DNA of 64,000 bases from an uncultured Acidimicrobiia bacterium (GCA_963701625.1 CAVPAT010000005.1:3146-67145), one strand, 5' to 3'; positions 1,185 through 54,083 are shown, counted from the stretch's first letter. Notes: generated by a model from the letters alone, not told the origin. Translations and numbers: made by a program.

Positions 1185-2683
1185 GCAATCCTCGTGGCGT
1201 ATCAGCTTCTTGGGCGAACCAGGGCGCGCGCGCGACCATGATCAGTTGTTCGGCGCGTTCGGTTTCCATGGCGGCCATTTCAGTCAGTTCATCCGCTGCC
1301 AGGTCGGCCAGGTCCTCGTGGTGTGGACGCCTTTGCTGGCGAGCTAGCCGCCAGTTTCTGCGTCCATGCCCTCGAGCGACAGCAGGTCGTCCGCGGAGCC
1401 TTCAACCTGCTCCTCGCCCACAATGGCTGCGGTCAGCAGCGCGTTGCGGGCGCGGTTGCGCAGTTCGTTGACCAGTTCTTCGTCGAAGGCCTCGATTTCG
1501 AGCATTTCGTTCAAGCGGAACGTAGGCGACTTCTTCCAGCGTGGAGAAGCCTTCGTCGACCAGAATCTGGGCGACTTCCTCGTCCACATCGAGTTTCTCG
1601 ATGAACAGGGCGAGCGTATTGCCGCTTTCGGTCGACTGCTTCTCTTCGGCCTCTTCGCTCGACATGATGATTGATGGTCCAGCCGGTCAGTTCGGACGCC
1701 AGGCGCACGTTCTGACCGCCGCGGCCGATGGCCATCGCCAGGTTGTCCTCGTCCACCACCACGTCCATGCTGTGCTTGTCTTCGTCCACCACGATGGAGC
1801 TGACTTCGGCCGGCGCCAGCGCGTTGATGACGAACTGCGCCGGATCGGCCGACCAGAGGATGATGTCGACGCGCTCGCCGGCCAGTTCGTTGGTCACCGA
1901 GGTGACGCGCGAACCGCGCAGGCCGATGCAGGTACCGATCGGGTCGATGCGCGGATCGTTCGACACCACGGCGATCTTGGCGCGCAGGCCGGGGTCGCGA
2001 GCGGCGGCCTTGATTTCGAGCAGGCCTTCCTCGATTTCCGGCACTTCCAGTTCGAACAGCTTCATGATGAATTCGGGCGCGGTGCGCGACAGCACCACCT
2101 GCGGGCCGCGGGCACCGCGATCGATGCGCAGCAGGTAGGCGCGCACGCGGTCGCCGACGCGCAGGTTTTCCTTGCGGGATCATCTGGTCGCGCGGCAGGA
2201 AGCCTTCGATGCGACCCGATTCGATGATGGCGTTGCCGCGGTCCATGCGCTTCACGACGCCATTGACCAGATGTTCCTTGCGGTCAAGGAAGTCGTTGAT
2301 GATCTGCTCGCGCTCGGCATCGCGGATCTTCTGCAGGATGACCTGTTTGGCAGCCTGTGCGCCAATACGGCCGAACTCGATGTTTTCCAGCGGCTCCTCG
2401 ATGTAGTCGCCGATTTCGATATCGGGAATCTTGTCCTGAGCGTCGATCAGCAGAATCTGGTAGCCCTCGGATTCCAGTTCGGCTTCGGTCACGACCAGCC
2501 AGCGGCGGAAGGATTCGTATTCACCGGTTTCGCGATCAATCGATACGCGCACGTCGACTCTTCCTTGAAGCGCTTCTTGGTGGCGGAGGCGAGGGCCTGC
2601 TCCAGGGCGCTCGAACACGACTTCCTGTCCACGTTCTTTTCGCGTGCCAGCGCATCGGCCAACATCAACATTTCACGGCTCAT
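1174..2683 (-). pseudogene. nusA: Transcription termination/antitermination factor NusA, with at least 5 frame changes
   Basis: The N-terminus [21 protein letters not shown] is in ORF 2489..2683. The S1 part ..[42 protein letters not shown] is in ORF 1344..2618. The KH domains ..[36 protein letters not shown] are in ORF 1511..2146. C-terminal repeats are in ORFs 1402..1665 and 1344..2618. The last codons ..FAQEADTPRGLHER-TGA overlap the infB ATG. Confidence 0.9.
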
Positions 2684-3260: not shown

Positions 3261-4262
3261 TTATGCACCTTCCTGAGGGATCTCCGCCGGTTTTATCATT
3301 TTTTCCAGTTCGCGCATCAAGGCCTTGACTTCAGCCTCGTCCAATTCATGAACCCGGCCCCGTTTCAACTGCGGCGGCAGGCTGAATGGCCCGTAACGAA
3401 CCCGGATCAGACGGCTGACGGTGCACCCCACCGCTTCGATCATGCGGCGCACCTCGCGGTTGCGGCCTTCGAACAGCGTCACGCGATACCAGCGATTGGC
3501 GCCTTCGCCACCGGCATCCGCCAGGCTGGCAAAGCTGGCCGGCTCGTCTTCGAGTTCGATGCCGCTCAACAACTGCTGTTGCGCTTCCAGCGTCAGTTCG
3601 CCGAGCACGCGCACGGCGTAATCGCGCACCAGTTCCACTTGCGCCAGCTTGTTGGCCAGTTCCCCCGAAGTGGTGAATAACAGCAGGCCCGAGGTATTGA
3701 AATCGAGGCGACCGACGGTGATCCAGCGCCCGCCGCGGATACGCGGCAAGGCGTTGAAGACCGAGGGCCGCCCTTCCGGGTCGTCGCGCGAGACGATTTC
3801 CCCCTCTGGCTTCTTGTACATGACGACGCGCGGCGTCCTGGTCGTCGTGAAGCGGACATTCACCAAGCGGCCGCCGATCTTGATCTTGTCGGTCGGCACC
3901 ACGCTCTGCCCGAGATGCGCAGCCACCCCGTTGACGCTGATGCGACCGGCGGCGATCCACTCCTCCATTTCACGCCGCGAGCCGATGCCGGCCTGGGCCA
4001 GCACCTTCTGCAGGCGCTCCGGCTTGGCTTCGGCGAGCGGCCGGCCATCACGGGCGATGCTGCCGCGATTCGCCCGACCGCCGGTATTCGGCGCCGGCTT
4101 GCGGCGTGGTGTTGCTTCCTTTGTCGCCGCTTGGGCAGCGGGCGCCTCGCGGCGCGGTCCGCGACCCCGCGCTGCTTCACCGTTGCGGTTCAACGGCTTT
4201 TCGGCCCGATTTTCGGAACCTGTCGCCTTCGACTGACGAAATGGTGTGCGTTTGGTTTTCAT
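3261..4262 (-). CDS. rluB: 23S rRNA pseudouridine synthase RluB (S4 domain plus RsuA/RluB catalytic domain) with a basic N-terminal extension
   Basis: This is the lower 334 codons of ORF 3261..5099, starting at MKTKRTPF (ATG at 4262, GGAG upstream). It carries ..[31 protein letters not shown].. (S4) and ..[40 protein letters not shown] (pseudouridine synthase motifs). The frame is intact. Confidence 0.9.
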
Positions 4263-4290
4263 TATCCCAGCTCCAGTGTCTGGCTGATGC
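4263..4290. other. Compositional and taxonomic breakpoint (betaproteobacterial-type DNA to actinobacterial-type DNA)
   Basis: Within ~25 nt upstream of the rluB ATG, the thiolase reading frame (..[13 protein letters not shown]) changes to non-homologous HQPDTGAGI and runs into rluB. GC content and codon style change here. Confidence 0.75.
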
Positions 4291-5220
4291 TCGTAGGCGG
4301 CGTGCGCGATGGACTCGCGGTAGCCCCGCTCGGGCGGCGCGACGCCGGCGGCCGAGTCGGTCGCGAAGTCGGGCAGGTCGATGAGCTGGTTCGGATAGCT
4401 CGGGGTGACGGTGCTGACGCCGGTGATGCGCACCGGATCGGTGATGCCGATGGACTTCGCGTAGTCGACGCTGCTGACGATCAGCGCGGCGCCGCCGTCG
4501 GAGGTCGCGCAGATCTCGAGCAGGCGCAGCGGATCCGATACGACCGGCGACGCGGCGACGTCCTCCAAGGTCACGGCCTTGCGGAACCGCGCGTTCGGGT
4601 TCTCGAGACCGTGGCGGGCGTTCTTCACCTTGACCGCGGCGAAGTCCTCCTGGGTCGCACCGAAGAGCTCCATGCGGCGCCGGGCGTAGAGCCCGAAGTA
4701 GGTCGGGTTGGTCGCGCCGAGGAGACGGAAGCGGAGCCAGTCCGGGTCGTCGCCGCGCTCACCCGCGTTCGGGGCGAGGAACCCCTTGGGTGTGGTGTCC
4801 GCACCGACGACCATCGCGACATCGGCCATGCCCGCGAGGATCTGGGCCTGCGCGGATGCCAGTGCAGTCACCCCACTCGCGCACGCGGCGTACGACGACG
4901 AGACCGACGCGCCGTTCCACCCGAGCGCCTTCGCGAACGTCGCGCCGGCGACGTAGCCGGGGTAGCCATTGCGCACGGTGTCCGCGCCGCAGACGAGTTG
5001 GATGTCCTGCCACGCGACGCCGGCATCCGCGAGCGCAGCCTGCGCGGCGGCGACGCCGTACTCGACGAAGTTGCGCCCCCATTTCCCCCACGGGTGCATG
5101 CCGACGCCGAGTACCGCGATCTCTTCGTCCTCTTGCCCCTGCGGGGCGGGCCGGACGGGCCCCGCTGCGCTGGTCCGATCGGCTGCGAGTCCTCGCTCGT
5201 CGCGCTCCGCTCTCGGTCAT
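4283..5220 (-). pseudogene. Thiolase-like / SCP-x type lipid-transfer protein (Ltp-like), 3'-truncated at the breakpoint and frameshifted near the 5' end
   Basis: The upper part of ORF 3261..5099 reads ..[55 protein letters not shown]... It lacks the C-terminal catalytic His/Cys region. The only start (ATG 5220, MTESG..) is in a different frame from the EEIAVLGVG segment. It pairs with the upstream DUF35 gene. Confidence 0.7.
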
Positions 5221-36769: not shown

Positions 36770-37982
36770 TCAGGCGACGACGCCGGCGGCACGCAGCGCG
36801 GCGCGGCGCGCCGCGTCCAGACCGAGGACCGAAGCCAGCACCTCGTCGGTGTGCTGACCGAGCGTCGGGCCCACGGAGCGGATCGCACCAGGAGTGCGCG
36901 CCAGCTTCGGGACTACGCCGGTCATCGGCACCAGATGCTCGAAGCCGGCAGCCAAACGCACGATCATCTCCCGAGCCGCCATGTGGTCGTCGGTCGCGAG
37001 ATCCGGCGCGGTGTTGATCATCCCGGCCGGGATGGAGTGCGCTTCGAGCACCTCGAGCAGGTCGGCCGACGGGATCCCTCTCGTCCAGGCCGCAACCTCG
37101 TCGTCCAGCACTCGTTGCCCGGCGGCGCGCGCCGCGTGGGTCGCGTACCGCTCGGCAAGGTCCGGACGCTCCATCGCCGCCGCGAGCCGCGCGAACACGG
37201 CATCTGCATTCGCGGCGATCACCACATCGCGGCCGTCGGCGGTCGGGTACGAGTTGGACGGGGCGACACCAGGGAGGACTCCTCCGCTGCGCCCACGCGT
37301 CACGCCGCCCAGCTCGAAATCGGCGACCGTCGACTCCATCAAGGCCATCACCGCCTCGTAGATCGCGACGTCGACCTCCTGACCGCGGCTCGACCGATGG
37401 CGCTCATTGACCGCGGCGAGCGCACCGATCACCGCGAAGACCGCCGCAAGTGCATCGCCGAGTGAAACTCCGGCGCGCGGTGGGCGGTCGGTCGGCATCG
37501 CCGGTCGTGTGCCGGATCCCACCCATCGCCTCACCGATTGCGCCGAAGCCCGGTTCGTGGGCCCGCGGTCCGGTCTGGCCGAACCCGGAGACGTGCACGA
37601 CGATCAGCCCCGGGTTGGCGGCCACGAGCGTCTCGTAGCCGAGGCCCCAGCGGGCAAGGGTCCCGGGCTTGAAATTCTCGACCACGATGTCGACGTGCGC
37701 CGCGAGTTCGCGGACCAGATCCCGACCCGCGTCGTGCCGCAGATCCACCACCACCGAGCGCTTGTTACGTGCGATCGCGGGCCACCACAGCGAGCGCCCG
37801 TCGACCGTCACCCCCCAACCGCGCATGGGATCCCCGGCCGGTGGTTCGATCTTGATCACATCCGCACCGAGGTCACCGAGGAGCTGGCCTGCGAACGGAC
37901 CGGCGATGAAGGATCCGAGTTCCAGAACGCGGAGTCCGGCAAGGGGGAGGGAGGCATCGTCCACGACGGACAAGCCTGCCAT
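36770..37982 (-). CDS. Family III CoA-transferase (CaiB/BaiF; racemase-like), one frameshift at ~37480
   Basis: The N-terminus ..LAGLRVLELGSFIAGPFAGQLLGDLGADVIKIEPP.GDP.R.. is in ORF 37404..37982. The gene continues in ORF 36770..37534 as ..RAGVSLGDALAAVFAVIGALAAV.. Confidence 0.8.
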
Positions 37983-38931: not shown

Positions 38932-39819
38932 TCAGGGCGCCGCCGGGGTGATCGGGGGGTGACTCAACTCCGGAGGGACCGCGACGAACGGCGATCGGGC
39001 CAGGCGCACGACCCCGACCACCATGACCGCCACTGCCAGCGCACACACCGAATACTGCAGGACGCCGTGGGCCGCCAGCTGCTCTTCGAACAGCGAGATA
39101 CCGAGGAACGCGCTCAGCATCGGGGTGGTGACCGCGAGCGCCGGCAGCGATGCCGCGAGGTGACCGGCGTTGAAGGCACTCTGATTGAGCACCAGCCCGG
39201 TCACGGCAAAGGCCGCCAGCGCGTAGATCGGCCAGTGGACGAACAGGCCGGCAAACGAGTTCTCCGAGAGCGACTCGACCACCTGCTTGGTCAACGCCGC
39301 GGTGCACGCGTAACCGGCGCCGGTGGCGATCGCGAGTCCCATGGCGCGGTAATGCGAGGCGGCGCGGCGGGTCGTGAGAATCATCGCGGCCATGATCGCC
39401 ACGCAGAATCCGAACGCCGAAATCCACTCGAACGCGGTGGCGTGCGGATTCCCGCCATGAGGTTCGCCGACTGCGAGAAACACCGCAATCCCGATCGCGA
39501 CCGCGGCTGCCGCCATCCAATCCCGCTTTCTCGGCTTGAACGGTGACCCGATCGCCGACAACGGAAGGGCGAACAGGAGCCCGCTCACGAGCAGCGTCTG
39601 GACCAGGAGGATGGAGCCGTTGGCCAGTGCTGCCGCCTCCAGAAAGTACGCCCCGAAGTCGAGCGCGATGCCGAAGATCCAGATCGGATGACGGATGACC
39701 TCGAGGATCAGCGCCGGCCGCAACGACAGGTGCGCGGGCGCCGCAGCCGCGACCTTGTGCTGGAACACCGAAGCGATCGCGTAACAGAGGCCGGCACTGA
39801 GGGCGAAGAAGAACGCCAT
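38932..39819 (-). CDS. DMT-superfamily (EamA-like) membrane protein
   Basis: A 295-aa protein with about ten hydrophobic segments. It begins MAFFFALSAGLCYAIASVFQHK.. Confidence 0.55.
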   Translation of the reverse strand: MAFFFALSAGLCYAIASVFQHKVAAAAPAHLSLRPALILEVIRHPIWIFGIALDFGAYFLEAAALANGSILLVQTLLVSGLLFALPLSAIGSPFKPRKRDWMAAAAVAIGIAVFLAVGEPHGGNPHATAFEWISAFGFCVAIMAAMILTTRRAASHYRAMGLAIATGAGYACTAALTKQVVESLSENSFAGLFVHWPIYALAAFAVTGLVLNQSAFNAGHLAASLPALAVTTPMLSAFLGISLFEEQLAAHGVLQYSVCALAVAVMVVGVVRLARSPFVAVPPELSHPPITPAAP

Positions 39820-39958: not shown

Positions 39959-40975
39959 TCACCATCCGAGAATCGCGCCCGCGATCATCCCGAGGATCAA
40001 CAGACCCCCCGCCCGCCGGGTCAGCAGGAACGCGTGCGGCGCGAACCAGAGTGGCCACACCGGGTTGGGCATCGGCGACTCGGCTGGTTTCGGCGCTCCG
40101 AAGGTCTTCCAGACCCGGGCGAACAACGGGTAGGACGCCACAACCACGAGCGTCGCGACCGGGAGCACCCGTGCGATCACGAGTGCGACCACCAGGACGT
40201 AGAACGCGACGAACATCCCGCGCGTCACCTGACGGGCGCGACGGTCACCGAGAATGACCGGCAGGGTGCGGGTGCCGGCGGGGCCGTCCCACGGCGCCTT
40301 GTCGATGTGCTTCCCCATCAGCACGGTCGTGCAGAGGATCGCGTAGGGCAAGCTGGCCAGCAGGACCGCCGCCGGGATGCTGCCCGTCGCGGCGTAGTAC
40401 ACGCCCCCGACCATGAGCGGCCCCCACACCGCGATGACCGTCGGTTCGCCGAGCCCACGCTTCTTCAATCGCAGCGGCGGCGCGGTGTACGCGGCCGAGA
40501 GGACGAACCCACCGAGCGCGAATCCGAGGATCGCCGGGCCGCGCTCGACGGTCAGGCCGATCATGATCGCGAGGCACAGGACGTTCACGGCGAGGGCGTA
40601 GGTCGCCAGGCGCCGGCGCGTGACCGCACCGGAGATCACCGGATGCGGCGAGTAGAGGTTGCGGGGGTAGTCCGCGGTGTCGGTGCCGACCTCGAGGTCG
40701 AAGAGATCGTTCATCAGGTTGTTCGCCATGTGCGCGAGCACGATGCCCAGCGCGGCGAGGGTGAACAGGGCCCAGTCCACATCGGCATCCCTGAAGACCG
40801 CGAGCAGTCCGCCGAGCGCCGCCGCGACCAACGTCATCGGCAGGACCCCGGCGCGGGTCAGCCACAGCCATTTCGAGACAGGGTCGAGGTCCCCAGGTGG
40901 CGGGTTGGTGGTGGCAAGCACATAGAGCCACCGCTTCGGGAGACTCTTCGGCCGCTCGATTGCCGCGTCGGTCAT
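39959..40975 (-). CDS. UbiA-family prenyltransferase
   Basis: ..VLAHMANNLMNDLFDLEVGTD.. is an NxxxDxxxD-type Asp-rich motif. ..YTAPPLRLKKRGLGE.. follows, with 8-9 transmembrane segments. The start at ATG 40975 gives MTDAAIERPK. Confidence 0.7.
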   Translation of the reverse strand: MTDAAIERPKSLPKRWLYVLATTNPPPGDLDPVSKWLWLTRAGVLPMTLVAAALGGLLAVFRDADVDWALFTLAALGIVLAHMANNLMNDLFDLEVGTDTADYPRNLYSPHPVISGAVTRRRLATYALAVNVLCLAIMIGLTVERGPAILGFALGGFVLSAAYTAPPLRLKKRGLGEPTVIAVWGPLMVGGVYYAATGSIPAAVLLASLPYAILCTTVLMGKHIDKAPWDGPAGTRTLPVILGDRRARQVTRGMFVAFYVLVVALVIARVLPVATLVVVASYPLFARVWKTFGAPKPAESPMPNPVWPLWFAPHAFLLTRRAGGLLILGMIAGAILGW

Positions 40976-41064
40976 GGGAGCGACGCTACGCGACCATTGT
41001 GCGCTCATCCACCCATGCGGTGGGCACACGCACAAAGGTCGGCCGCTGACGCACGGATGAGGTG

Positions 41065-41622
41065 CTAACCGCCGTAATTCATCCGGGTGTCCTCCATGCG
41101 GAGCACCTCAGTGGCTTCGTCCTTCAGGAAGCCGCTGTCGACGATCTCGCCGACGAAGAACGTGTGGTTGCCGGCGACGAGCCGATCCCGTACCTCGCAG
41201 TCGAGAAAGGCGACGGACTGAGCGAGAATCGGCGCGCCGGTCGCACGCTCGAGGTACGGGAACCCGTTGAGCGTGCTCGCTGCCAGGTCGACCTCGACGG
41301 GCTTCGTGAACTTTCGGACGATCGCGCGGTCCTCGCGGTCGATCAGGCACACGCTGAACACGCCACCGGCATCGATGAGCTCGTGGGTGAAGGCCTCGAC
41401 CTCGATGCCGACGCCAACCAGCTTCGGTTCGAAGCTGAGCTGCGTGACCCAGTTGGCGGTCATGCCGTTCCGGCGCTGTGCGCCGTCGGTGCTGCCCACG
41501 ACGTAGAGGCCCGACGGCATCTTCCACAACACCCGCCGACGAAGCTTGTCGTAGTCGACCTGCTGATCGTCAGTGGTCACTGCCTCGGGATAGGGGCCGA
41601 CCGGCCCGTCTTTGGTTGCCAT
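41065..41622 (-). CDS. Flavin reductase-like (split-barrel FMN-binding) protein
   Basis: ..GLYVVGSTDGAQRRNGMTANWVTQLSFEPKLVGVGI..GVFSVCLI..HTFFVGEIV.. Confidence 0.75.
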   Translation of the reverse strand: MATKDGPVGPYPEAVTTDDQQVDYDKLRRRVLWKMPSGLYVVGSTDGAQRRNGMTANWVTQLSFEPKLVGVGIEVEAFTHELIDAGGVFSVCLIDREDRAIVRKFTKPVEVDLAASTLNGFPYLERATGAPILAQSVAFLDCEVRDRLVAGNHTFFVGEIVDSGFLKDEATEVLRMEDTRMNYGG

Positions 41623-41735
41623 GGGTGCAGGCTACGAGGCAGACCGTGAGCAGCCGGCGCGAGAAGATGCAACGCTGCGCGAGGAGCCGAGACGGCAGAG
41701 GAGCCGTGCCGGTACGTCAGACCGAGGAGGACACG

Positions 41736-43350
41736 ATGGACCGGGTCAAGATCGCCAGGTGGAGCGAGATCCCGGATCGGGAACCGATCGGCGTCACCGT
41801 CGACGGCATCGACTTGGTCATCATCCGCCAGGACGACGCGGCCTCTGTCCTCTACGGCCGATGTCTGCACCGCGGCGCACTGCTGGCGGACGGAACCATC
41901 GTCGACGACGACCTCATCTGCGGGCTCCACGGCTGGGACTACCGAATCGAGTCGGGGGTCAGCGCCTACAACAACGCCGAGGCGCTCGAGAAGTTCACGA
42001 GCGTCGTCGAGGACGACACACTCTTCGTCGACCAGACCGAGGTCCTTCGCTTCGCGATGAAGCACCCACAGCCTTTCGACGCGGACGTGTATCAGGGTTA
42101 CTACCAGGACCCGCACATGGTCCCGGAGGAGCCGTTCGTCGCGTACATCCACGAGCTCGCAGCGAACGGGCTCACCAAGACCGGCCATCACGGGCCGCTC
42201 GGCGCGATGGGCGTACCGCGCGACGAGCTCCCCAAGTGGGACTCGATCCAGTTCGTCACCGCGCAGCTCGCGCGGCTGCCGAAGCTCGACGATCAGGAAA
42301 TCGGCACCGAAGTGTGCATCGGTCCGAACGCTGACAAACCGCTGTGGCTGGACATCCCACTGTTCGTTTCGGACATGAGCTTCGGTGCGCTCTCCGAGGA
42401 GGCCAAGACCGCACTCGCCCGCGGCGCCGAACTCGCCGGCACCGGCATCTGCTCCGGTGAAGGCGGAATGCTGCCCGAGGAGCAGGCCGAGAACAGTCGC
42501 TACTTCTACGAACTCGCGTCCGCGCGCTTCGGCTGGAGCTTCGACGTGCTCAAGAAGGTGCAGGCCTTCCACTTCAAGGGTGGCCAGGGAGCAAAGACGG
42601 GGACCGGTGGTCATCTTCCCGGCGACAAGGTCATCGGCAAAATCGCACAGGTCCGAGGCCTGCCCGAAGGCACCGCGGCAATCTCGCCGCCACGGTTCCC
42701 GGACTGGGATTCGCTCGACGACTACAAGCGCTTCGCCGGGCAGGTCCGGGAGCAGTCGGGTGGCATCCCGGTCGGGTTCAAGCTGTCCGCGCAGCACATC
42801 GAGGAGGACCTCGACGCCGCATTGGCCGTCGGGGTCGACTACGTGATCCTCGACGGGCGCGGGGGCGGAACCGGCGCCGCGCCGCTGCTGTTCCGGGACA
42901 ACATCTCTGTGCCGACGATCCCGGCATTGGCCCGGGCCCGAGCCCACCTCGATCGTCGCGGGCGGCGCGACATCACGCTCGTGATCACCGGCGGACTCCG
43001 GCACGCCCCGGATTTCGCCAAGGCCCTCGCCCTCGGCGCGGATGCCGTCGCGGTGGCGAACTCGGCCATTCAGGCGATCGGGTGTCTCGGCATGCGGGCC
43101 TGCAACACCAACAACTGTCCCGTCGGCATCGCGACCCAGCAGCCTCACCTCCGGGCCCGGCTGCCGGTCGAGGAGGCCGCGCACCGCTTGGACCGGTTCT
43201 TCCGGGCGACGGTGGAACTCATGCAGGTCCTCGCCCGAGCGTGCGGTCACACGCACCTGCGCGAGTTCACCGCCGACGACCTCACGACGTTCGACCGGGA
43301 GATGGCCCATCTCACCGGGGATCGCCTACGGAGGAGTGATGGCACCGTGA
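41736..43350 (+). CDS. Rieske [2Fe-2S] domain fused to an FMN-binding glutamate-synthase-domain-2-like protein; one +1 insertion near 43318 makes the sequence as given read through into the next gene
   Basis: The ATG at 41736 follows GAGGAGG. The Rieske motif is CLHRG..17 aa..CGLHGW. The GltS-like part reads ..IPLFVSDMSFGALSEEAKTALARGAELAGTGICSGEGGM..KGGQGAKTGTGGHLPG..ILDGRGGGTGAAP..ITGGLR..CNTNNCPVGIATQ... Dropping one G of CCGGGG restores LTGIAYGGVMAP-TGA (stop at 43348-43350). Confidence 0.75.
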
Positions 43351-45295
43351 CCGAGGATCTCGTCTTCTCCAAGGTGGCCGAACTCGACGACCTCCCCGAC
43401 GGTCGCGTGCGGACCGTGCTGGCCGGGCGACGATCGATCGCGCTGACCCGGGTCGGCGACCGGTACGGCGCCCTGGACAACCACTGTCCGCATCAGGGCG
43501 GGCCGCTCGGCGAGGGTTCGATCGAGAAGGGGCTCCTCCGCTGTCCGTGGCACGGCTACGACTACGACCCGCTCACCGGCCAGCCGCCCGCCGGCTTCTC
43601 CGACGCGCCGAGCTGTTTCGCGGTCGAGATCCGCGACGACGGCGTCTACGTCGGACTCCCGGCCGAGTCCGAGCACGAACGGACCGTCTCGGACGTCATG
43701 GTCGAGACCATGGTCGCGTGGGGCGTCACGCATGTCTTCGGCATGGTCGGCCACTCCAACCTCGGCTTCGCCGATGCCATGCGGCGCGCCGAGGAGCGCG
43801 GCGAACTCACCTTCGTCGGGATTCGTCACGAAGGTGCCGGCGCATTCGCCGCCTCGGCCTACGGCAAGCTCACCGGCCGTCCCGCGGCCTGTTTCGCGAT
43901 CGCCGGGCCCGGCTCGACCAATCTGCTCACCGGTCTCTACGACGCCAAGGCGGACCGCGCACCGGTCCTCGCGATCTCAGGTCAGGTTCCGTCCACGGTG
44001 CTGGGCCGGGGTGCGTTTCAGGACGTCGACCTCAACGCCGCCTTCGCAAGCCGTGGCGGCCTACTCCAAGACCGTGCTCCCCGAGTCCGATCACGCCGAG
44101 CTGATGACGCTGGCGCTGAAGCACGGCGACCGTCCAACGCGACGTCGCCCACCTCGTGTTGCCCGACGAGGTCCAGGTCCGCGTCGTGGACGAGGAGTCG
44201 AAACCGTCATCGCCGACCGGCCGCCTCGGCGACGACCGCATCGCGCCACCAGCCGAAGCACTCACGGCCGCAATCGCTGCGATCGATGCTGCGAACCGGC
44301 CCGTCATCGTCGTCGGCCACGGCGTCCGCTTCGACATGGACTCGGTCCGAGAGCTGGCCGAGACCCTCGGCGCTCCGGTGCTCACCACGTTCAAGGCCAA
44401 GGGCCTGATCTCGGACCATCACCCGCTCGGCGCCGGAGTGCTCGGCCGCAGCGGGACCCCGGTGGCGAGCTGGCTGATGAACGAGTCGGACCTGCTCATC
44501 GTGATCGGCGCATCGTTCTCGAACCACACCGGGATCGCGCCGTACAAGCCGATCGTGCAGGTCGACTTCGACCCCATGGCGCTCGGACGCTTCCACCCGG
44601 TCACGGTCCCGGTGCAGGGCCACGCGGGGGTGACCGCGCGTCTCATTTCCGAACGGCTCAAATCTCGCAACGATCGGGCGGACCAACGGACCGACGTCGC
44701 CGCGCGCTGGAAGATCTGGCGATCCGAGAAGGCTCGGCGGCTCGATGACGACCGTCGGCGCGGGGTCTCGTCGGCCGCGATCTTCGACAGCCTGAACCGC
44801 CACGCGCCCGAGGACGCCGTCATCACCGTCGACGTCGGGAACCATGCGTACTCCTTCGGCCGGTACTTCGAATGTGAGCGCCAGTCCATTCTGATGTCCG
44901 GGTACCTCGGATCCATCGGCTTCGGGTTCCCGGCGGCGATGGGCGCGTGGGCCGCGGTCGGCGACACCCGGAAGATCATCGCGGTCACCGGAGACGGAGG
45001 CTTCGGCCAGTACCTCGCCGACCTGACCACGGCGGTGAAGTACGGCATGCCGATCGCCCACGTGCTGCTCGACAACTCGTCGCTCGGCAAGATCACCAAA
45101 GAGCAGCAGGCCGCCGAGTACGACGTGTGGCACACGGACCTCCTCAACCCGGACTTCGCGGCCTACGCAGAGCTGTGCGGCGCGCTGGGGATCAAGGTGG
45201 AGTCACGCGACGAACTCGACGAGGCCCTGGCCCGAGCCGTCAATCACGCGGGTCCAGCCGTGGTGGCGATCCACACCGACCCTGAGCTCGTCTGA
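43347..45295 (+). CDS. Rieske [2Fe-2S] domain fused to a ThDP-dependent enzyme (pyruvate oxidase/acetolactate synthase superfamily); two frameshifts (~44045, ~44125)
   Basis: The GTG at 43347 (GTGA overlap) follows GGAGGA. The Rieske motif is CPHQGGPL..CPWHGYDY. The PYR domain reads ..VMVETMVAWGVTHVFGMVGHSNLGF..IRHEGAGAFAASAYGKLTG..AGPGSTNLLTGLYDA. The middle part is AAYSKTVLPESDHAELMTL then VQRDVAHLVLPDEVQ. The PP domain in ORF 44156..45295 has GYLGSIGFGFPAAMGA..AVTGDGGFGQY. Confidence 0.75.
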
Positions 45296-45332
45296 CCGGC
45301 ACCGCCTCGGGCCCAGCACCGCCATCTTTCCT

Positions 45333-45381
45333 GTTCATCGGCGCGTTGGCCGCCGCACGACCGGCCAACGCGCCAATGAAC
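45333..45381. repeat. Palindromic intergenic element, copy B (bidirectional terminator-like hairpin)
   Basis: GTTCATCGGCGCGTTGGCCG-loop-CGGCCAACGCGCCAATGAAC forms a ~19-bp stem with one mismatch. It lies between convergent genes. The arm GGCCAACGCGCCAATGAAC recurs at 9146-9164. Confidence 0.65.
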
Positions 45382-45401
45382 ACGCCGACGGGACGCGGCC
45401 G

Positions 45402-46577
45402 TCAGTTCAGACGGTGTTGGCTCACCGGCAGGACGTAGAACCAGAACGGCTGGGGTGCCTCCGCGTCCTTCATGGCCTGCTGCGCCTGGTGCAGCATCTT
45501 GCCGGCCGCGGTCTGCTGGGCGAACCAGGTTTCGGCCGAGCGGGCGGCAGGGACGTGCTCGGAGAGTCCGGCCGCGGCCTGCTCGTAGTAGCCGCGGATC
45601 GCGAGACCAGAGGTCACCGGGTTGTCAGGGATCTCGGCCTCCGCCCACGGCGTGCCGTCGGCCACGCGGGAGAAGGCGAACAGGGCAGCCTCGACGACGT
45701 CCGGGTCCACCGCCGCGCGGATGCCGCCGGCGGCGCGGTCAAACGCCTGGCGCAGTCCCCGCATCTCGTCGACCGCCGGCGGGAGCGACGGGTCGAGCCG
45801 GGCCGGCATCGGACACGCAAGTGGGACGTCGACCTCGTCGGTAATCGTCTCGGGATACGTCGCGAGCGTCGGCTCGGTCGCGTCGAGCAACGAAAACGCC
45901 TCGCGCAACACCGCGTGCTGGAAGTCGGGATCACCGGGTCGGCCCAGTGGACGACCGAGCGGGAACTCGCAATAGAGGCCGCGGGGAACGGGCATCCGTT
46001 CAGCGACCTCGTGCATCGAGATGAGCGCGACCGTCGCGATCCCGGCCGCTTCCAGGGTGTACGCGAGCGCACCGACCGTGCGCGTGCACAGCGGTCAGAC
46101 GGGCGTGAGCAGGACGACATCGGTGCCCTGCTCCTTGAGCAGATGCGCAGCTTGGGGCCCGGTGTCCTGGAGAATCGTCGCGAGGTCGAACTGGGCGCCC
46201 ATGAACGACACGTGGTTGGGCGCGACCGATCCGATCGTCCCGTCGGCCGCCAACTCGTCGAGGCGGTCGACGGGGAACACGACATTGCGGTCGAGCATCA
46301 TGCCGCTGCGGTCGAGGTTTTGGCTGTTGTGACTGATCGTCACGTCATCGTGGCCGTGCGGGATCACCCGGAAGCCGGGATCCCCCATCCCGAAGCTCTC
46401 CTCGTCGGTGAGGTGCAACCCCGCCGTGGTGACGATCGCGACTGAGGCGTCAGCGAGCCTGGGCGCCGTCGTGAAGGGATGGTCGGTCAGGTCCGGGACC
46501 GCCAGAGTCGCCATCACCGCCCGCATATCACTGTCGGCACCCACCGGTCTGCTCCCCTTGGCTGCTTGCCTGACCAT
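45402..46577 (-). CDS. GrdB/PrdB-family (reductase selenoprotein B-like) protein with an in-frame TGA at 46095-46097; putative selenocysteine codon
   Basis: ORFs 46095..46577 and 45402..46016 are in the same frame, separated by TGA plus 26 open codons. The join reads ..QGTDVVLLTPV-U-PLCTRTVGALAYTLEAAGIATVALISMHEV... This has the same layout as my recollection of GrdB (..LTSTUGTCTRCGA..E.AGI..). No start or RBS for an independent downstream gene occurs before codon 27. Confidence 0.65.
46067..46083 (-). promoter_or_regulatory. Candidate bacterial SECIS minihelix
   Basis: The mRNA reads UGA-CCGCUGUGCAC (11 nt)-GCGCAC-GGUCG-GUGCGC. This is a perfect 6-bp stem with a GGUCG apical loop, starting 11 nt after the UGA. 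It resembles the fdhF minihelix GGUUGCAGGUCUGCACC, which also sits 11 nt after its UGA (from memory). Confidence 0.5.
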
Positions 46578-47907: not shown

Positions 47908-49206
47908 ATGAGCCCCGAGATCCTCCCTCCGACCGAAGCTGCCGCCCGGCTCGAGGTGCGCGACACGCTCGGCATCCCCCTCGGACCCGGTCAGCCGTCC
48001 GCCTTCCTCCATGCGCTCGACACGCGTGACGACTGGATCGAACTCACGGTGTTCGGCGCGCTCCTCGTGGACCTCTACGGCGTGTTCCTCAAGCCCGGGG
48101 TCCGCTACCTCTCCGGGTTCTTCGGACCGGCTGAGCGCTTCCTGGTGGAGAGCGGCGGCCGAGTCGAGTTCCTCCCAGCCGATTTCCGCCGGTTCACCCG
48201 GATCGCCGAGCAGCTGGCCCCGCGCGTGGTCGCGACCGTCGCGACACCGCCGGACAACGACGGCTACTGCTCCCTGTCGCTCCACGCCGGTGCGACCATC
48301 GGCGCGATCCACAGCGCGGGCGCGGATCCCGATCGACTGCTCGTCGTCGAGACGAACGCGAAGTTTCCGCGCACCTTCGGCCTCGAACCTGACCATCACC
48401 ATCGGGTGCACATCGACGAGATCGACATCCTCGTCGAGTCCGATCGCGATCTCTTCATCCTGCCGGACGCACCGGCCAATACCGCCGACACCGCCATCGC
48501 CGAACACGTCCGTGCGCTGATCCCCGATGGCGCGACGCTCCAGACCGGCATCGGCGGCATTCCGTCCATGGTGGTCGGACTCTTGGCCGACGGCGACGGC
48601 GGCGACTACGGCGTGCACTCGGAGATGTTCACCACTGGGCTCATGCAACTCCACCGCGCCGGGAAGGTGTCGAATGCCCACAAGGGTCAGTTCGACGGCG
48701 TCTCGGTCACGACCTTCGCCGCCGGGACCCAAGAGCTCTATGACTGGCTCGACGGCAACCGGGAGGTTGCGTTTCTTCCGGTCGACATCGTGAACGCGCC
48801 CGAGGTGATCTCGCGGAACAACACGATGATCACCGTCAACGGCGCATTGTCGGTCGACCTCTACGGCCAGGTCGTCGCCGACACGATCGGTGGGCACCAG
48901 TTCTCCGGCATCGGCGGCCACGAGGACTTCATCGCCCAGTCCGGGCTCTCGCTCGAGGACCGGTCGCTCGTGTGCCTGCGGTCCACCTCGAAGGTCGAGG
49001 GCGTACCGATCTCACGAATCGTGCCCGCGCTCCCCGAAGGCTGGATCGTGACCACCCCGCGTCATCAGTTGGATCTCGTCGTCACCGAATACGGCGTGGC
49101 GCGCCTCCGAGGCCGGACCGTGCGGGAGCGGGCACGAGCGCTCGCGGACATTGCCGACCCGCAGTTTCGCGACGCACTCAAGGAACGCGCTGAGCAACTC
49201 AGCTAG
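47908..49206 (+). CDS. Acetyl-CoA hydrolase/transferase family protein (4-hydroxybutyrate CoA-transferase-like)
   Basis: ..GATLQTGIGGIPSMVV..HSEMFTTGLMQLHRAGKVSN..INGALSVDLYGQVVADTIGGHQFSGIGGHEDF.. Confidence 0.8.
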   Translation: MSPEILPPTEAAARLEVRDTLGIPLGPGQPSAFLHALDTRDDWIELTVFGALLVDLYGVFLKPGVRYLSGFFGPAERFLVESGGRVEFLPADFRRFTRIAEQLAPRVVATVATPPDNDGYCSLSLHAGATIGAIHSAGADPDRLLVVETNAKFPRTFGLEPDHHHRVHIDEIDILVESDRDLFILPDAPANTADTAIAEHVRALIPDGATLQTGIGGIPSMVVGLLADGDGGDYGVHSEMFTTGLMQLHRAGKVSNAHKGQFDGVSVTTFAAGTQELYDWLDGNREVAFLPVDIVNAPEVISRNNTMITVNGALSVDLYGQVVADTIGGHQFSGIGGHEDFIAQSGLSLEDRSLVCLRSTSKVEGVPISRIVPALPEGWIVTTPRHQLDLVVTEYGVARLRGRTVRERARALADIADPQFRDALKERAEQLS

Positions 49207-53133: not shown

Positions 53134-54083
53134 ATGGCTGCCACCGTGCTCCCCGAACCGGGACTCCTCGTCGCACCCGATCCCGAAGGCCCCATTGCAC
53201 CGACTGGCAAGCCCAAGCCGGAACTCCGCGAACAGCTCCGAAAGATTCCGACGCTGCGCAACGTCGTGAATGCGATCGTGCTCTACGCGGTGACGATCGG
53301 GATCTTCGTGGTCGTTGCGTGGGCGAAGAACCCGTTCGTGTGGGTCGCCGCGTTCCTCGCGATGGGCCCGATCCACGCCCGCTTCGCGATCTTCATGCAC
53401 GAGGCCGCGCATCGACTCCTCTTCGCGAACCGCAAGGCGAACGACTTCTTCGGCCGCTGGTTCATCGCGTTCCCGCGTTCGTGCCGATCGACCTCTACCG
53501 ACGCGGTCACATGGCGCACCACCGCGAGGAGTTCGGACCAAATGAACCCGACATCCCGCTCTACCGTGGCTACCCGATCCCCCGAGACTCGTTCCGCCGC
53601 AAACTCACCCGCGACGCGATCGGCATCACCGGATGGAGACTGACCAAAGGTCTGTTCCGGGGCGTCGTTGCCCAGGACGCCAAGGTGCGCAGCCAGGCGC
53701 GCGGCATCGTCGCCGTCCAGGTCGTCATGCTGGGACTGTTCACGCTGTTCGGTCACCCGTGGATGTATTTCATCCTCTGGTTCGCGCCTCACCTCACCGT
53801 GTGGCGGGTCATCAACCGGCTCCGCAGCATCGCCGAGCACGGCGGCATGCAGCACTCGGATGATCGCCGCCAGACCACCCACTCCGTGGTCCAGCACTGG
53901 CCGGCGCGGCTGACGATCGTCCCGTACTTCACCGGTTGGCACCTCGCCCATCACGTGGACTCAGGCATCCCGATGCGCAACCTGCCGAAGCTGCACGACG
54001 AGCTGATCCGGTCGGGCTACGTCCAGCCCGGCCTCGAGTACCGCAGCTACCCGGCGCTGTGGAAGGCCCTCGCCAGCGGCTGA
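53134..54083 (+). CDS. Membrane fatty-acid desaturase family protein, one frameshift at ~53470
   Basis: The His boxes are HEAAHRLL (ORF 53134..53643), then HMAHHREE and ..GWHLAHHVD (ORF 53094..54083). Several transmembrane segments are present. Confidence 0.75.

Follow-up and report, generated by a model that had tools for sequence, protein, structure and literature searches.

Thiamine diphosphate (ThDP) enzymes of the POX/PoxB type pass electrons to O2 or quinones, and flavin mononucleotide (FMN) enzymes of the GltS type take them from ferredoxin or GltD. Here, we describe a two-gene cassette in which a GltS-like FMN/[3Fe-4S] oxidoreductase (gene 1) and a POX/PoxB-like ThDP enzyme (gene 2) each carry their own N-terminal Rieske [2Fe-2S] domain. 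It lies on a 64,000-nucleotide stretch of DNA (hereafter the window) from an uncultured Acidimicrobiia bacterium (GCA_963701625.1 CAVPAT010000005.1:3146-67145). Literature searches returned no characterised member of either fusion or of the pair, and no characterised pathway; the preliminary description of this locus had likewise assigned it to none. The nearest case was a survey of CDGSH domains, which records CDGSH fused to Glu_synthase at the level of architecture only and reports neither a function nor a ThDP partner for it (PMC5859297).

Two enzymes, each with its own Rieske domain

Gene 1 joins a Rieske domain to the FMN-binding barrel of glutamate synthases (Table 1), and the motifs that the preliminary description had listed for it (CLH/CGLH, GGQGAKTGTGGHLPG, DGRGGGTGAAP and CNTNNCPVGIATQ) are all present. 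Its only further Pfam match was a weak FMN_dh hit overlapping the Glu_synthase region; neither an Ntn amidotransferase nor a GXGXG domain was among its Pfam matches. The best solved relatives in a PDB sequence search were the FMN domains of GltS large subunits (7MFM, 1EA0 and 1LLW), and the Lys of QGAK and a downstream Arg, which bind 2-oxoglutarate in GltS, are kept in gene 1 and invariant in its homologs. Against the NCBIfam GltS model NF008730, gene 1 scored 136 bits, far under the 1047-bit cut-off.

Gene 2 places a second Rieske domain, 28% identical to the first, ahead of a complete set of PYR, middle and PP domains, and Pfam confirmed this architecture, which had been described earlier together with the CPH/CPWH and GDGGF motifs. 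Both Rieske domains weakly match HcaC and AndAb in NCBIfam, and no POR/PFOR or [4Fe-4S] ferredoxin domain was found among the Pfam matches of gene 2. RHEG and GDGGF...N are invariant in 123 family members and align to E50 and D433-N460 of PoxB (numbered as in UniProt P07003), and the invariant GVLGRSGT, GASFS and DxDP segments align gap-free to the PoxB segments that bind flavin adenine dinucleotide (FAD); an extra Cys of gene 2, C90, is present in only 57% of the family. The top NCBIfam match was pyruvate oxidase NF006377, with 407.6 bits and the equivalog cut-off of 742 not reached, and a PDB sequence search placed L. plantarum POX and E. coli PoxB on top (E about 1e-64). The ortholog P0002, which shares 85% identity with the repaired window protein, was modelled confidently by AlphaFold (pLDDT 90.4, pTM 0.89), and the closest folds to this model were those of PoxB, POX and C. 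glutamicum PQO, all of them pyruvate oxidases with ThDP and FAD, with Foldseek TM scores of 0.88-0.91 (target-normalised) to 3EYA and 9EV6. Ending ~40 residues short of the PoxB C-terminus, gene 2 is without the C-terminal membrane (lipid-binding) peptide of that enzyme.

The plus strand from 41736 to 45295 holds these two adjacent genes, neither of them in one clean frame as deposited. The listing of open reading frames (ORFs) gives an ORF as written, 41478-44408, that runs from the Rieske/GltS-like protein in frame into the second Rieske domain and the start of the ThDP enzyme; the remainder of that enzyme has to be read in two further frames, 43732-44748 and 44156-45295, so that gene 2 is split over three frames and broken twice. 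DNA alignments showed that the three indels flagged in the preliminary description are genuine features of the deposited sequence, each being one extra window base compared to every ortholog aligned, and removing one base at each place gives two proteins of 537 (gene 1) and 648 (gene 2) amino acids. Once gene 1 is repaired, the GTGA overlap already proposed as the start of gene 2 is borne out, with the GTG start overlapping the gene 1 stop codon. Across the repaired sites, both proteins equal intact homologs residue for residue, and the repaired C-terminus of gene 1 (...HLTGIAYGGVMAP) matches that of orthologs, which are 535-548 amino acids long. Programmed frameshifting was considered as well and ruled out, the orthologs being single-frame at all three sites.

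Judging from these comparisons, the window copy is most likely intact in the organism, and its three frameshifts would be sequencing or assembly errors, since the repaired cassette is free of stop codons and as similar to its orthologs (82-90% identity) as intact neighbouring genes are, since other frameshifts occur in the window and since split genes are also seen in related long-read loci from metagenome-assembled genomes (MAGs). One count weighs against this view: compared to short-read orthologs, the window carries five frameshifts in about 18 kb (37485, 43319, about 44050, about 44125 and 53473), and three of these five sit inside the 3.6-kb cassette while two fall in the other ~14.5 kb compared, which is somewhat above an even error rate and leaves room for real inactivation. 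The cassette would then be a pseudogene pair, recently inactivated in the source organism by three real insertions. We consider this quite unlikely, given the stop-free repaired frames with their ordinary identity to orthologs, the frameshifts that also affect NusA, a CoA-transferase and another gene of a contig with a probable chimeric join, and the similar splits in the related long-read MAG loci L001 and L086.

Pairing and iron carriers across genomes

Protein searches returned over 120 Rieske-ThDP proteins (74-87% identity) and over 120 Rieske-GltS proteins (77-90% identity), all of full length, and the homologs of both fusions come mainly from Acidimicrobiia MAGs and metagenomes, short-read assemblies included. 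Because each fusion has so many intact full-length homologs, many of them from short-read assemblies, both are by this comparison real proteins and no assembly artefact, which removes a worry voiced in the preliminary description about the Rieske-ThDP fusion. Some long ThDP matches of 1080-1190 amino acids were suspected to be GltS-ThDP fusions and turned out to be tandem double ThDP enzymes.

A scan of species-representative genomes gave 311 related loci, and among the best 80, which were examined, Rieske-GltS adjoins Rieske-ThDP in 37, spread over at least five phyla and often with a 4-bp overlap. Rieske-GltS is usually found directly upstream on the same strand; it is downstream in L046, L049 and L061, and divergent in L066. 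The MAGs that hold these paired loci carry the labels Acidimicrobiia, Thermoleophilia/Solirubrobacterales, Gemmatimonadota, Myxococcota and Acidobacteriota. The pairing is not limited to Actinobacteria, where the preliminary description had proposed to look for it, and it is frequent without being obligatory. In the closest species (L004-L015), it is kept wherever the locus extends far enough upstream, L011 being too short to tell, and three Rieske-GltS homologs on megabase contigs each have a Rieske-ThDP gene at a 4-bp overlap, with flanks that are otherwise unrelated. When metagenome loci were sought from the Rieske-GltS side, 29 had a ThDP partner, 38 had room for one but none, and 16 were uninformative (29/67 informative loci paired). 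Overall, the partner is missing nearby in about half of the loci of either enzyme, and all Rieske ligands are kept in each enzyme even then. For 46 paired loci, the pairwise distances of one protein are correlated with those of the other (r = 0.86, Mantel p = 0.001). A neighbour-joining tree built from 95 Rieske-ThDP proteins shows the three states (paired, beside DUF5996 or alone) to be coherent within clades, with many switches. Considering this adjacency in part of the loci, the correlated distances and the clade-wise switching of states, the pair is, as far as genome comparison can tell, a frequent, co-inherited and separable module.

Among 50%-identity representatives, about three full-length clusters make up the compact Rieske-ThDP family, and its nearest ThDP relatives carry a rubredoxin at the same N-terminal position (four representative clusters: P0247, P0251, P0259 and P0268). 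Another ThDP relative, P0242, starts with CDGSH, Fer4_19, CDGSH and Rieske domains in a row. The two genomic contexts that were looked up, those of P0247 (rubredoxin) and P0242 (CDGSH), show the gene alone among housekeeping genes, with no GltS-like neighbour; loci L167-L170 belong with these rubredoxin- or CDGSH-fused PoxB-like ThDP enzymes. Rieske, rubredoxin and CDGSH centres have potentials suited to accepting electrons from a flavin. That one-electron carriers were repeatedly fused to a PoxB-like core without membrane anchor points to this ThDP core as an oxidative 2-oxoacid decarboxylase that would export its electrons through the fused iron centre. These relatives, with rubredoxin or with CDGSH, Fer4_19 and Rieske on a ThDP core, lend support to the electron-transfer role suggested earlier.

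Possible routes of electrons through the cassette

Our preferred model, to which we give somewhat less than an even chance, is that the cassette forms a two-enzyme redox module around a 2-oxoacid, in which the two enzymes would act as consecutive dehydrogenases exporting electrons via their Rieske domains; 2-oxoacids are the metabolite class common to GltS-type and POX-type active sites. According to this model, the GltS-like FMN/[3Fe-4S] enzyme encoded by gene 1 would interconvert an amino or imino acid and a 2-oxoacid, with its own Rieske domain as a one-electron port. Gene 2 would encode a soluble PoxB/POX-type enzyme, probably with ThDP and FAD, that oxidatively decarboxylates a 2-oxoacid (pyruvate being the default guess) and hands both electrons singly to the Rieske cluster at its own N-terminus, and not to quinone or O2. 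An amino acid might thus be turned into a 2-oxoacid by gene 1, and the 2-oxoacid into a carboxylic acid or acyl-phosphate plus CO2 by gene 2. We infer that both enzymes would send their electrons from flavin to Rieske and on to a common partner encoded outside the cassette: since the C-terminal membrane peptide of PoxB is missing in gene 2, another electron outlet would be needed, and since the Rieske ligands are intact where each enzyme occurs alone, a generic shared partner is suggested rather than an exclusive mutual contact.

Several points weigh against this model. In POX/PoxB, electrons pass from ThDP to FAD by way of a Phe (F465 in PoxB, F479 in LpPOX), which aligns to a Lys (LGKI) in gene 2, and this position is Lys in all aligned Rieske-fused members but one (P0243, with Glu) and in the two nearest rubredoxin-fused relatives. 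The predicted model of the gene 1 ortholog P0122 is of low confidence (pLDDT 49, pTM 0.46), because all homologs to hand are at least 77% identical, and it gives no Rieske-to-[3Fe-4S] geometry. Moreover, characterised GltS-family enzymes run reductively, which makes the oxidative role of gene 1 an assumption, and no acceptor for the Rieske domains was identified.

Electrons could also be wired directly from one enzyme to the other, from ThDP (FAD) through the Rieske domain of gene 2 to that of gene 1, then to [3Fe-4S] and FMN, where an imino or oxo acid would be reduced (glutamate being made from 2-oxoglutarate and NH3, for example) in a self-contained, 2-oxoacid-driven reaction of the glutamate synthase kind, without NAD(P)H or free ferredoxin. 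This is possible, if rather unlikely in our view. The translational coupling by a 4-bp overlap fits such a wire, as do the self-contained nature of a module with unrelated flanks and the co-evolution of the two proteins; furthermore, characterised GltS FMN domains are all reductive through the [3Fe-4S] cluster whose motif gene 1 keeps, and Rieske oxygenase systems offer a precedent for transfer from one Rieske centre to another. However, each gene is often found without the other and with its Rieske ligands still intact, the rubredoxin- and CDGSH-fused relatives have no GltS-like neighbour, and Rieske-type ferredoxins, rubredoxin and CDGSH are weak reductants compared to the potentials of GltS FMN and [3Fe-4S] centres. 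The pair might even couple an oxygen-tolerant 2-oxoacid:Rieske oxidoreductase, independent of PFOR, directly to a GltS-like reductase, cluster to cluster: a POX-type ThDP/FAD enzyme would drive electrons through both Rieske domains into [3Fe-4S]/FMN, and ammonia and a 2-oxoacid would yield glutamate or a different amino acid without NAD(P)H or free ferredoxin. We think this unlikely, but it would, if true, be a new reductive amination route in aerobic bacteria. The computed evidence does not separate the sequential model from the direct wire, and both share a gene 2 product that would oxidise a 2-oxoacid and reduce its own Rieske cluster. We slightly prefer the sequential model, because the Rieske domains are intact in lone enzymes and because Rieske, rubredoxin and CDGSH centres take electrons from flavin better than they give them to a GltS-type FMN/[3Fe-4S] enzyme.

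It is improbable, finally, that the Rieske domains serve as electron inputs, fed from NAD(P)H by a neighbouring flavin reductase (PF01613 in the window, FMN_red in other clades), with enzymes that would be reductases or reductively activated. The window and nine of the closest loci, which come from eight assemblies (L004, L006-L009 and L012-L015), do have a divergent flavin reductase beside gene 1, and FMN_red is found beside Rieske-ThDP in about 9 other loci, but such reductase genes are missing from most loci, cross-phylum pairs included. POX-type ThDP chemistry also releases electrons rather than consuming them, and PF01613 enzymes normally release free reduced flavin.

A Rieske port fused on both enzymes and inherited jointly in several phyla would mean that two textbook families can move electrons by a new logic, and the large family of stand-alone GltS-domain proteins would gain its first functional handle. 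The rubredoxin- and CDGSH-fused relatives suggest that a whole clade of pyruvate-oxidase-like dehydrogenases linked to iron carriers has been overlooked in aerobic soil and sediment bacteria. As soluble and highly conserved proteins, both should be straightforward to express heterologously.

Surroundings of the cassette and comparison with known systems

The flavin reductase, UbiA prenyltransferase and DMT transporter genes that the preliminary description had placed upstream and divergent are present, although this neighbourhood is kept only in the closest clade (about twelve loci, L004-L015). The window and the 10 closest loci, from 9 assemblies, each have a single copy of the motif TGCAACG-N14-GAGAC per 22-kb locus, in every case 5' of gene 1; its spacer is N10 in L014, and it is kept even where the flavin reductase is not adjacent. 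A promoter scan of 41000-45500 found no sigma-70 consensus, and the motif is not known to correspond to a promoter consensus. Downstream of gene 2, the inverted repeat at 45340..45374 was not called by a scan for terminators with a T-tail.

Recurrent neighbours in the wider locus sets were Rieske-ThDP, DUF5996 and a Na/H exchanger. DUF5996 (PF19459), the other notable one besides the partner enzyme, adjoins Rieske-ThDP in 18 genome loci (L025, L032, L038, L053, L058 and others) and follows Rieske-GltS, or separates it from Rieske-ThDP, in 15 metagenome loci (for example L116, L119, L139, L146, L156 and L162); it is not encoded in this window. A divergent form of DUF5996 shares the motifs WP-x-H-x-D, SPGD and P-x-PY-x-Y, and searches of PDB, NCBIfam and the literature gave no match for this family, which could be a third component of the system. 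Lone ThDP loci often lie beside FMN_red, an ECF sigma factor with a zf-HC2 anti-sigma factor, DoxX or SDR genes. Around lone Rieske-GltS genes, where translations were judged by eye, neighbours were heterogeneous (apparent GGT, Amt and PPDK), only pirin-like ORFs recurred (4 loci) and no alternative partner enzyme emerged.

Further downstream, an acetyl-CoA hydrolase/transferase gene (butyryl-CoA:acetate CoA-transferase-like; 47908-49206, plus strand) is found 2-9 kb from the cassette in the window and in its closest relatives; by synteny only, its product could recycle acetate if gene 2 encodes a pyruvate oxidase. The PrdB/GrdB-like gene that converges on gene 2 (45402-46577, minus strand) has an in-frame TGA at codon 161, within LLTPV-[TGA]-PLCTRTVGAL, and the same TGA stands in the same motif in three other species (L004, L006 and L013). 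Its product is likely a selenocysteine (UxxC) protein in Acidimicrobiia, to judge by this conserved codon; a hairpin just 3' of the UGA was no more stable than shuffled sequence.

Elsewhere in the window, the frameshift at ~37485 falls in a family-III CoA-transferase gene (36770-37982, minus strand), that at ~53473 in a gene at 53134-53783 (plus strand), and NusA (1344-2618, minus strand) is split by a frameshift. The first 4300 nucleotides have a GC content of 0.60-0.63 compared to 0.69, and at this step an ORF (3261-5099, minus strand) joins a thiolase N-domain to an S4 and pseudouridine synthase protein; a chimeric assembly join or a rearrangement probably lies near 4250-4300. The only Rfam match in the window was a TPP riboswitch (RF00059, 21021-21131, plus strand, 63 bits), and no tRNA genes were found there.

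Table 1. Features of the Rieske-GltS/Rieske-ThDP cassette and its flanks, in window positions
Feature	Position	Strand	Details
Gene 1, Rieske + GltS-like FMN/[3Fe-4S] oxidoreductase	41736..43350	+	537 amino acids after dropping the extra G at 43317-43320; Pfam
Gene 1 Rieske [2Fe-2S] domain	41745..41966	+	PF00355, residues 4-77, 50.8 bits (cut-off 20.3)
Gene 1 Rieske ligands	CLH 41862-41870, CGLH 41919-41930	+	C/H invariant or nearly so in 27 homologs
Gene 1 Glu_synthase FMN-binding barrel	42327..43247	+	PF01645, residues 198-504, 291 bits, E 2e-86
Gene 1 [3Fe-4S] ligand motif of GltS, C-x5-C-x4-C-P (CLGMRACNTNNCP)	43083..43121	+	Also present at the aligned position in 7MFM and 2VDC; invariant in homologs
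Gene 2, Rieske + POX/PoxB-type ThDP enzyme	43347..45295	+	648 amino acids after dropping two extra bases; Pfam, NCBIfam, PDB sequence and fold searches
Gene 2 Rieske [2Fe-2S] domain	43371..43583	+	PF00355, residues 9-79, 51 bits (cut-off 20.3)
Gene 2 Rieske ligands	CPH 43485-43493, CPWH 43542-43553	+	C47, H49, C66 and H69 100% conserved in 123 family members
TPP_enzyme_N (PYR)	43683..44033	+	117 bits; catalytic Glu in RHEG
TPP_enzyme_M middle domain, FAD-binding in POX/PoxB	44264..44638	+	113 bits
TPP_enzyme_C (PP) with GDGGF...N	44831..45268; GDGGF 44990-45004	+	121 bits
Frameshift 1	43317..43320	+	Extra G, GGGG in ACCGGGGAT, one base fewer in orthologs; fuses gene 1 in frame to gene 2
Frameshift 2	44048..44049	+	Extra A, GCAAGCC; one base fewer in orthologs
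Frameshift 3	44125..44126	+	Extra G, CACGGCG vs CAC-GCG in orthologs
Upstream motif TGCAACG-N14-GAGAC	41668..41693	+	~45-70 nt before the gene 1 ATG; candidate promoter or operator
Flavin reductase PF01613	41065..41622	-	Pfam; divergent to gene 1; linked to the pair only in the closest clade
UbiA prenyltransferase	39959-41035	-	Pfam/NCBIfam
DMT transporter	38932-39819	-	Pfam/NCBIfam
13-bp inverted repeat GGCGCGTTGGCCG ... CGGCCAACGCGCC	45340..45374	.	Between convergent gene 2 and PrdB-like gene; possible terminator

Compared with described systems, gene 2 is closest in sequence and structure to E. coli PoxB, C. glutamicum PQO and L. plantarum POX, with which it shares the PYR/middle/PP fold, the catalytic Glu (RHE), and the GDG...N ThDP-Mg motif, and some of its segments align gap-free to those that bind FAD in PoxB; it differs from them by its N-terminal Rieske domain, the absence of the PoxB C-terminal membrane peptide, a Lys in place of the relay Phe and a score of 408 bits where the pyruvate oxidase model asks for 742. 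To PFOR/OFOR, it is alike in proposed function only, as a ThDP enzyme whose oxidative decarboxylation would send electrons out via an Fe-S cluster: the fold family is unrelated, gene 2 has no POR domains, and PFOR uses [4Fe-4S] clusters and CoA. Gene 1, for its part, resembles the FMN domain of GltS large subunits and the stand-alone FMN-binding glutamate synthase family by its PF01645 barrel, its QGAK...R motifs and C-x5-C-x4-C-P, but it has an N-terminal Rieske domain, it is without amidotransferase, GXGXG domain or GltD partner, and it scores 136 bits where GltS asks for 1047. Some of its homologs bear the JGI name N-methylglutamate synthase MgsABC, and no MgsA (amidotransferase-like) or MgsB (GXGXG) partner was found beside Rieske-GltS among the neighbours in the four Rieske-GltS loci that have gene calls and Pfam annotation (L001, L084, L085 and L086).

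Both Rieske domains of the cassette share their CxH...CxxH ligands with Rieske-type ferredoxins (HcaC, AndAb and BphF) and NirD, but they are fused to catalytic enzymes instead of being free shuttles, and the cassette encodes no oxygenase. The CDGSH and Glu_synthase fusions likewise combine a stand-alone GltS-like domain with a small [2Fe-2S] module, which is CDGSH and not Rieske (PMC5859297). Altogether, each of the two enzymes, as judged by motifs, folds and family scores, belongs to a known superfamily and yet departs from the defining features of its named families.

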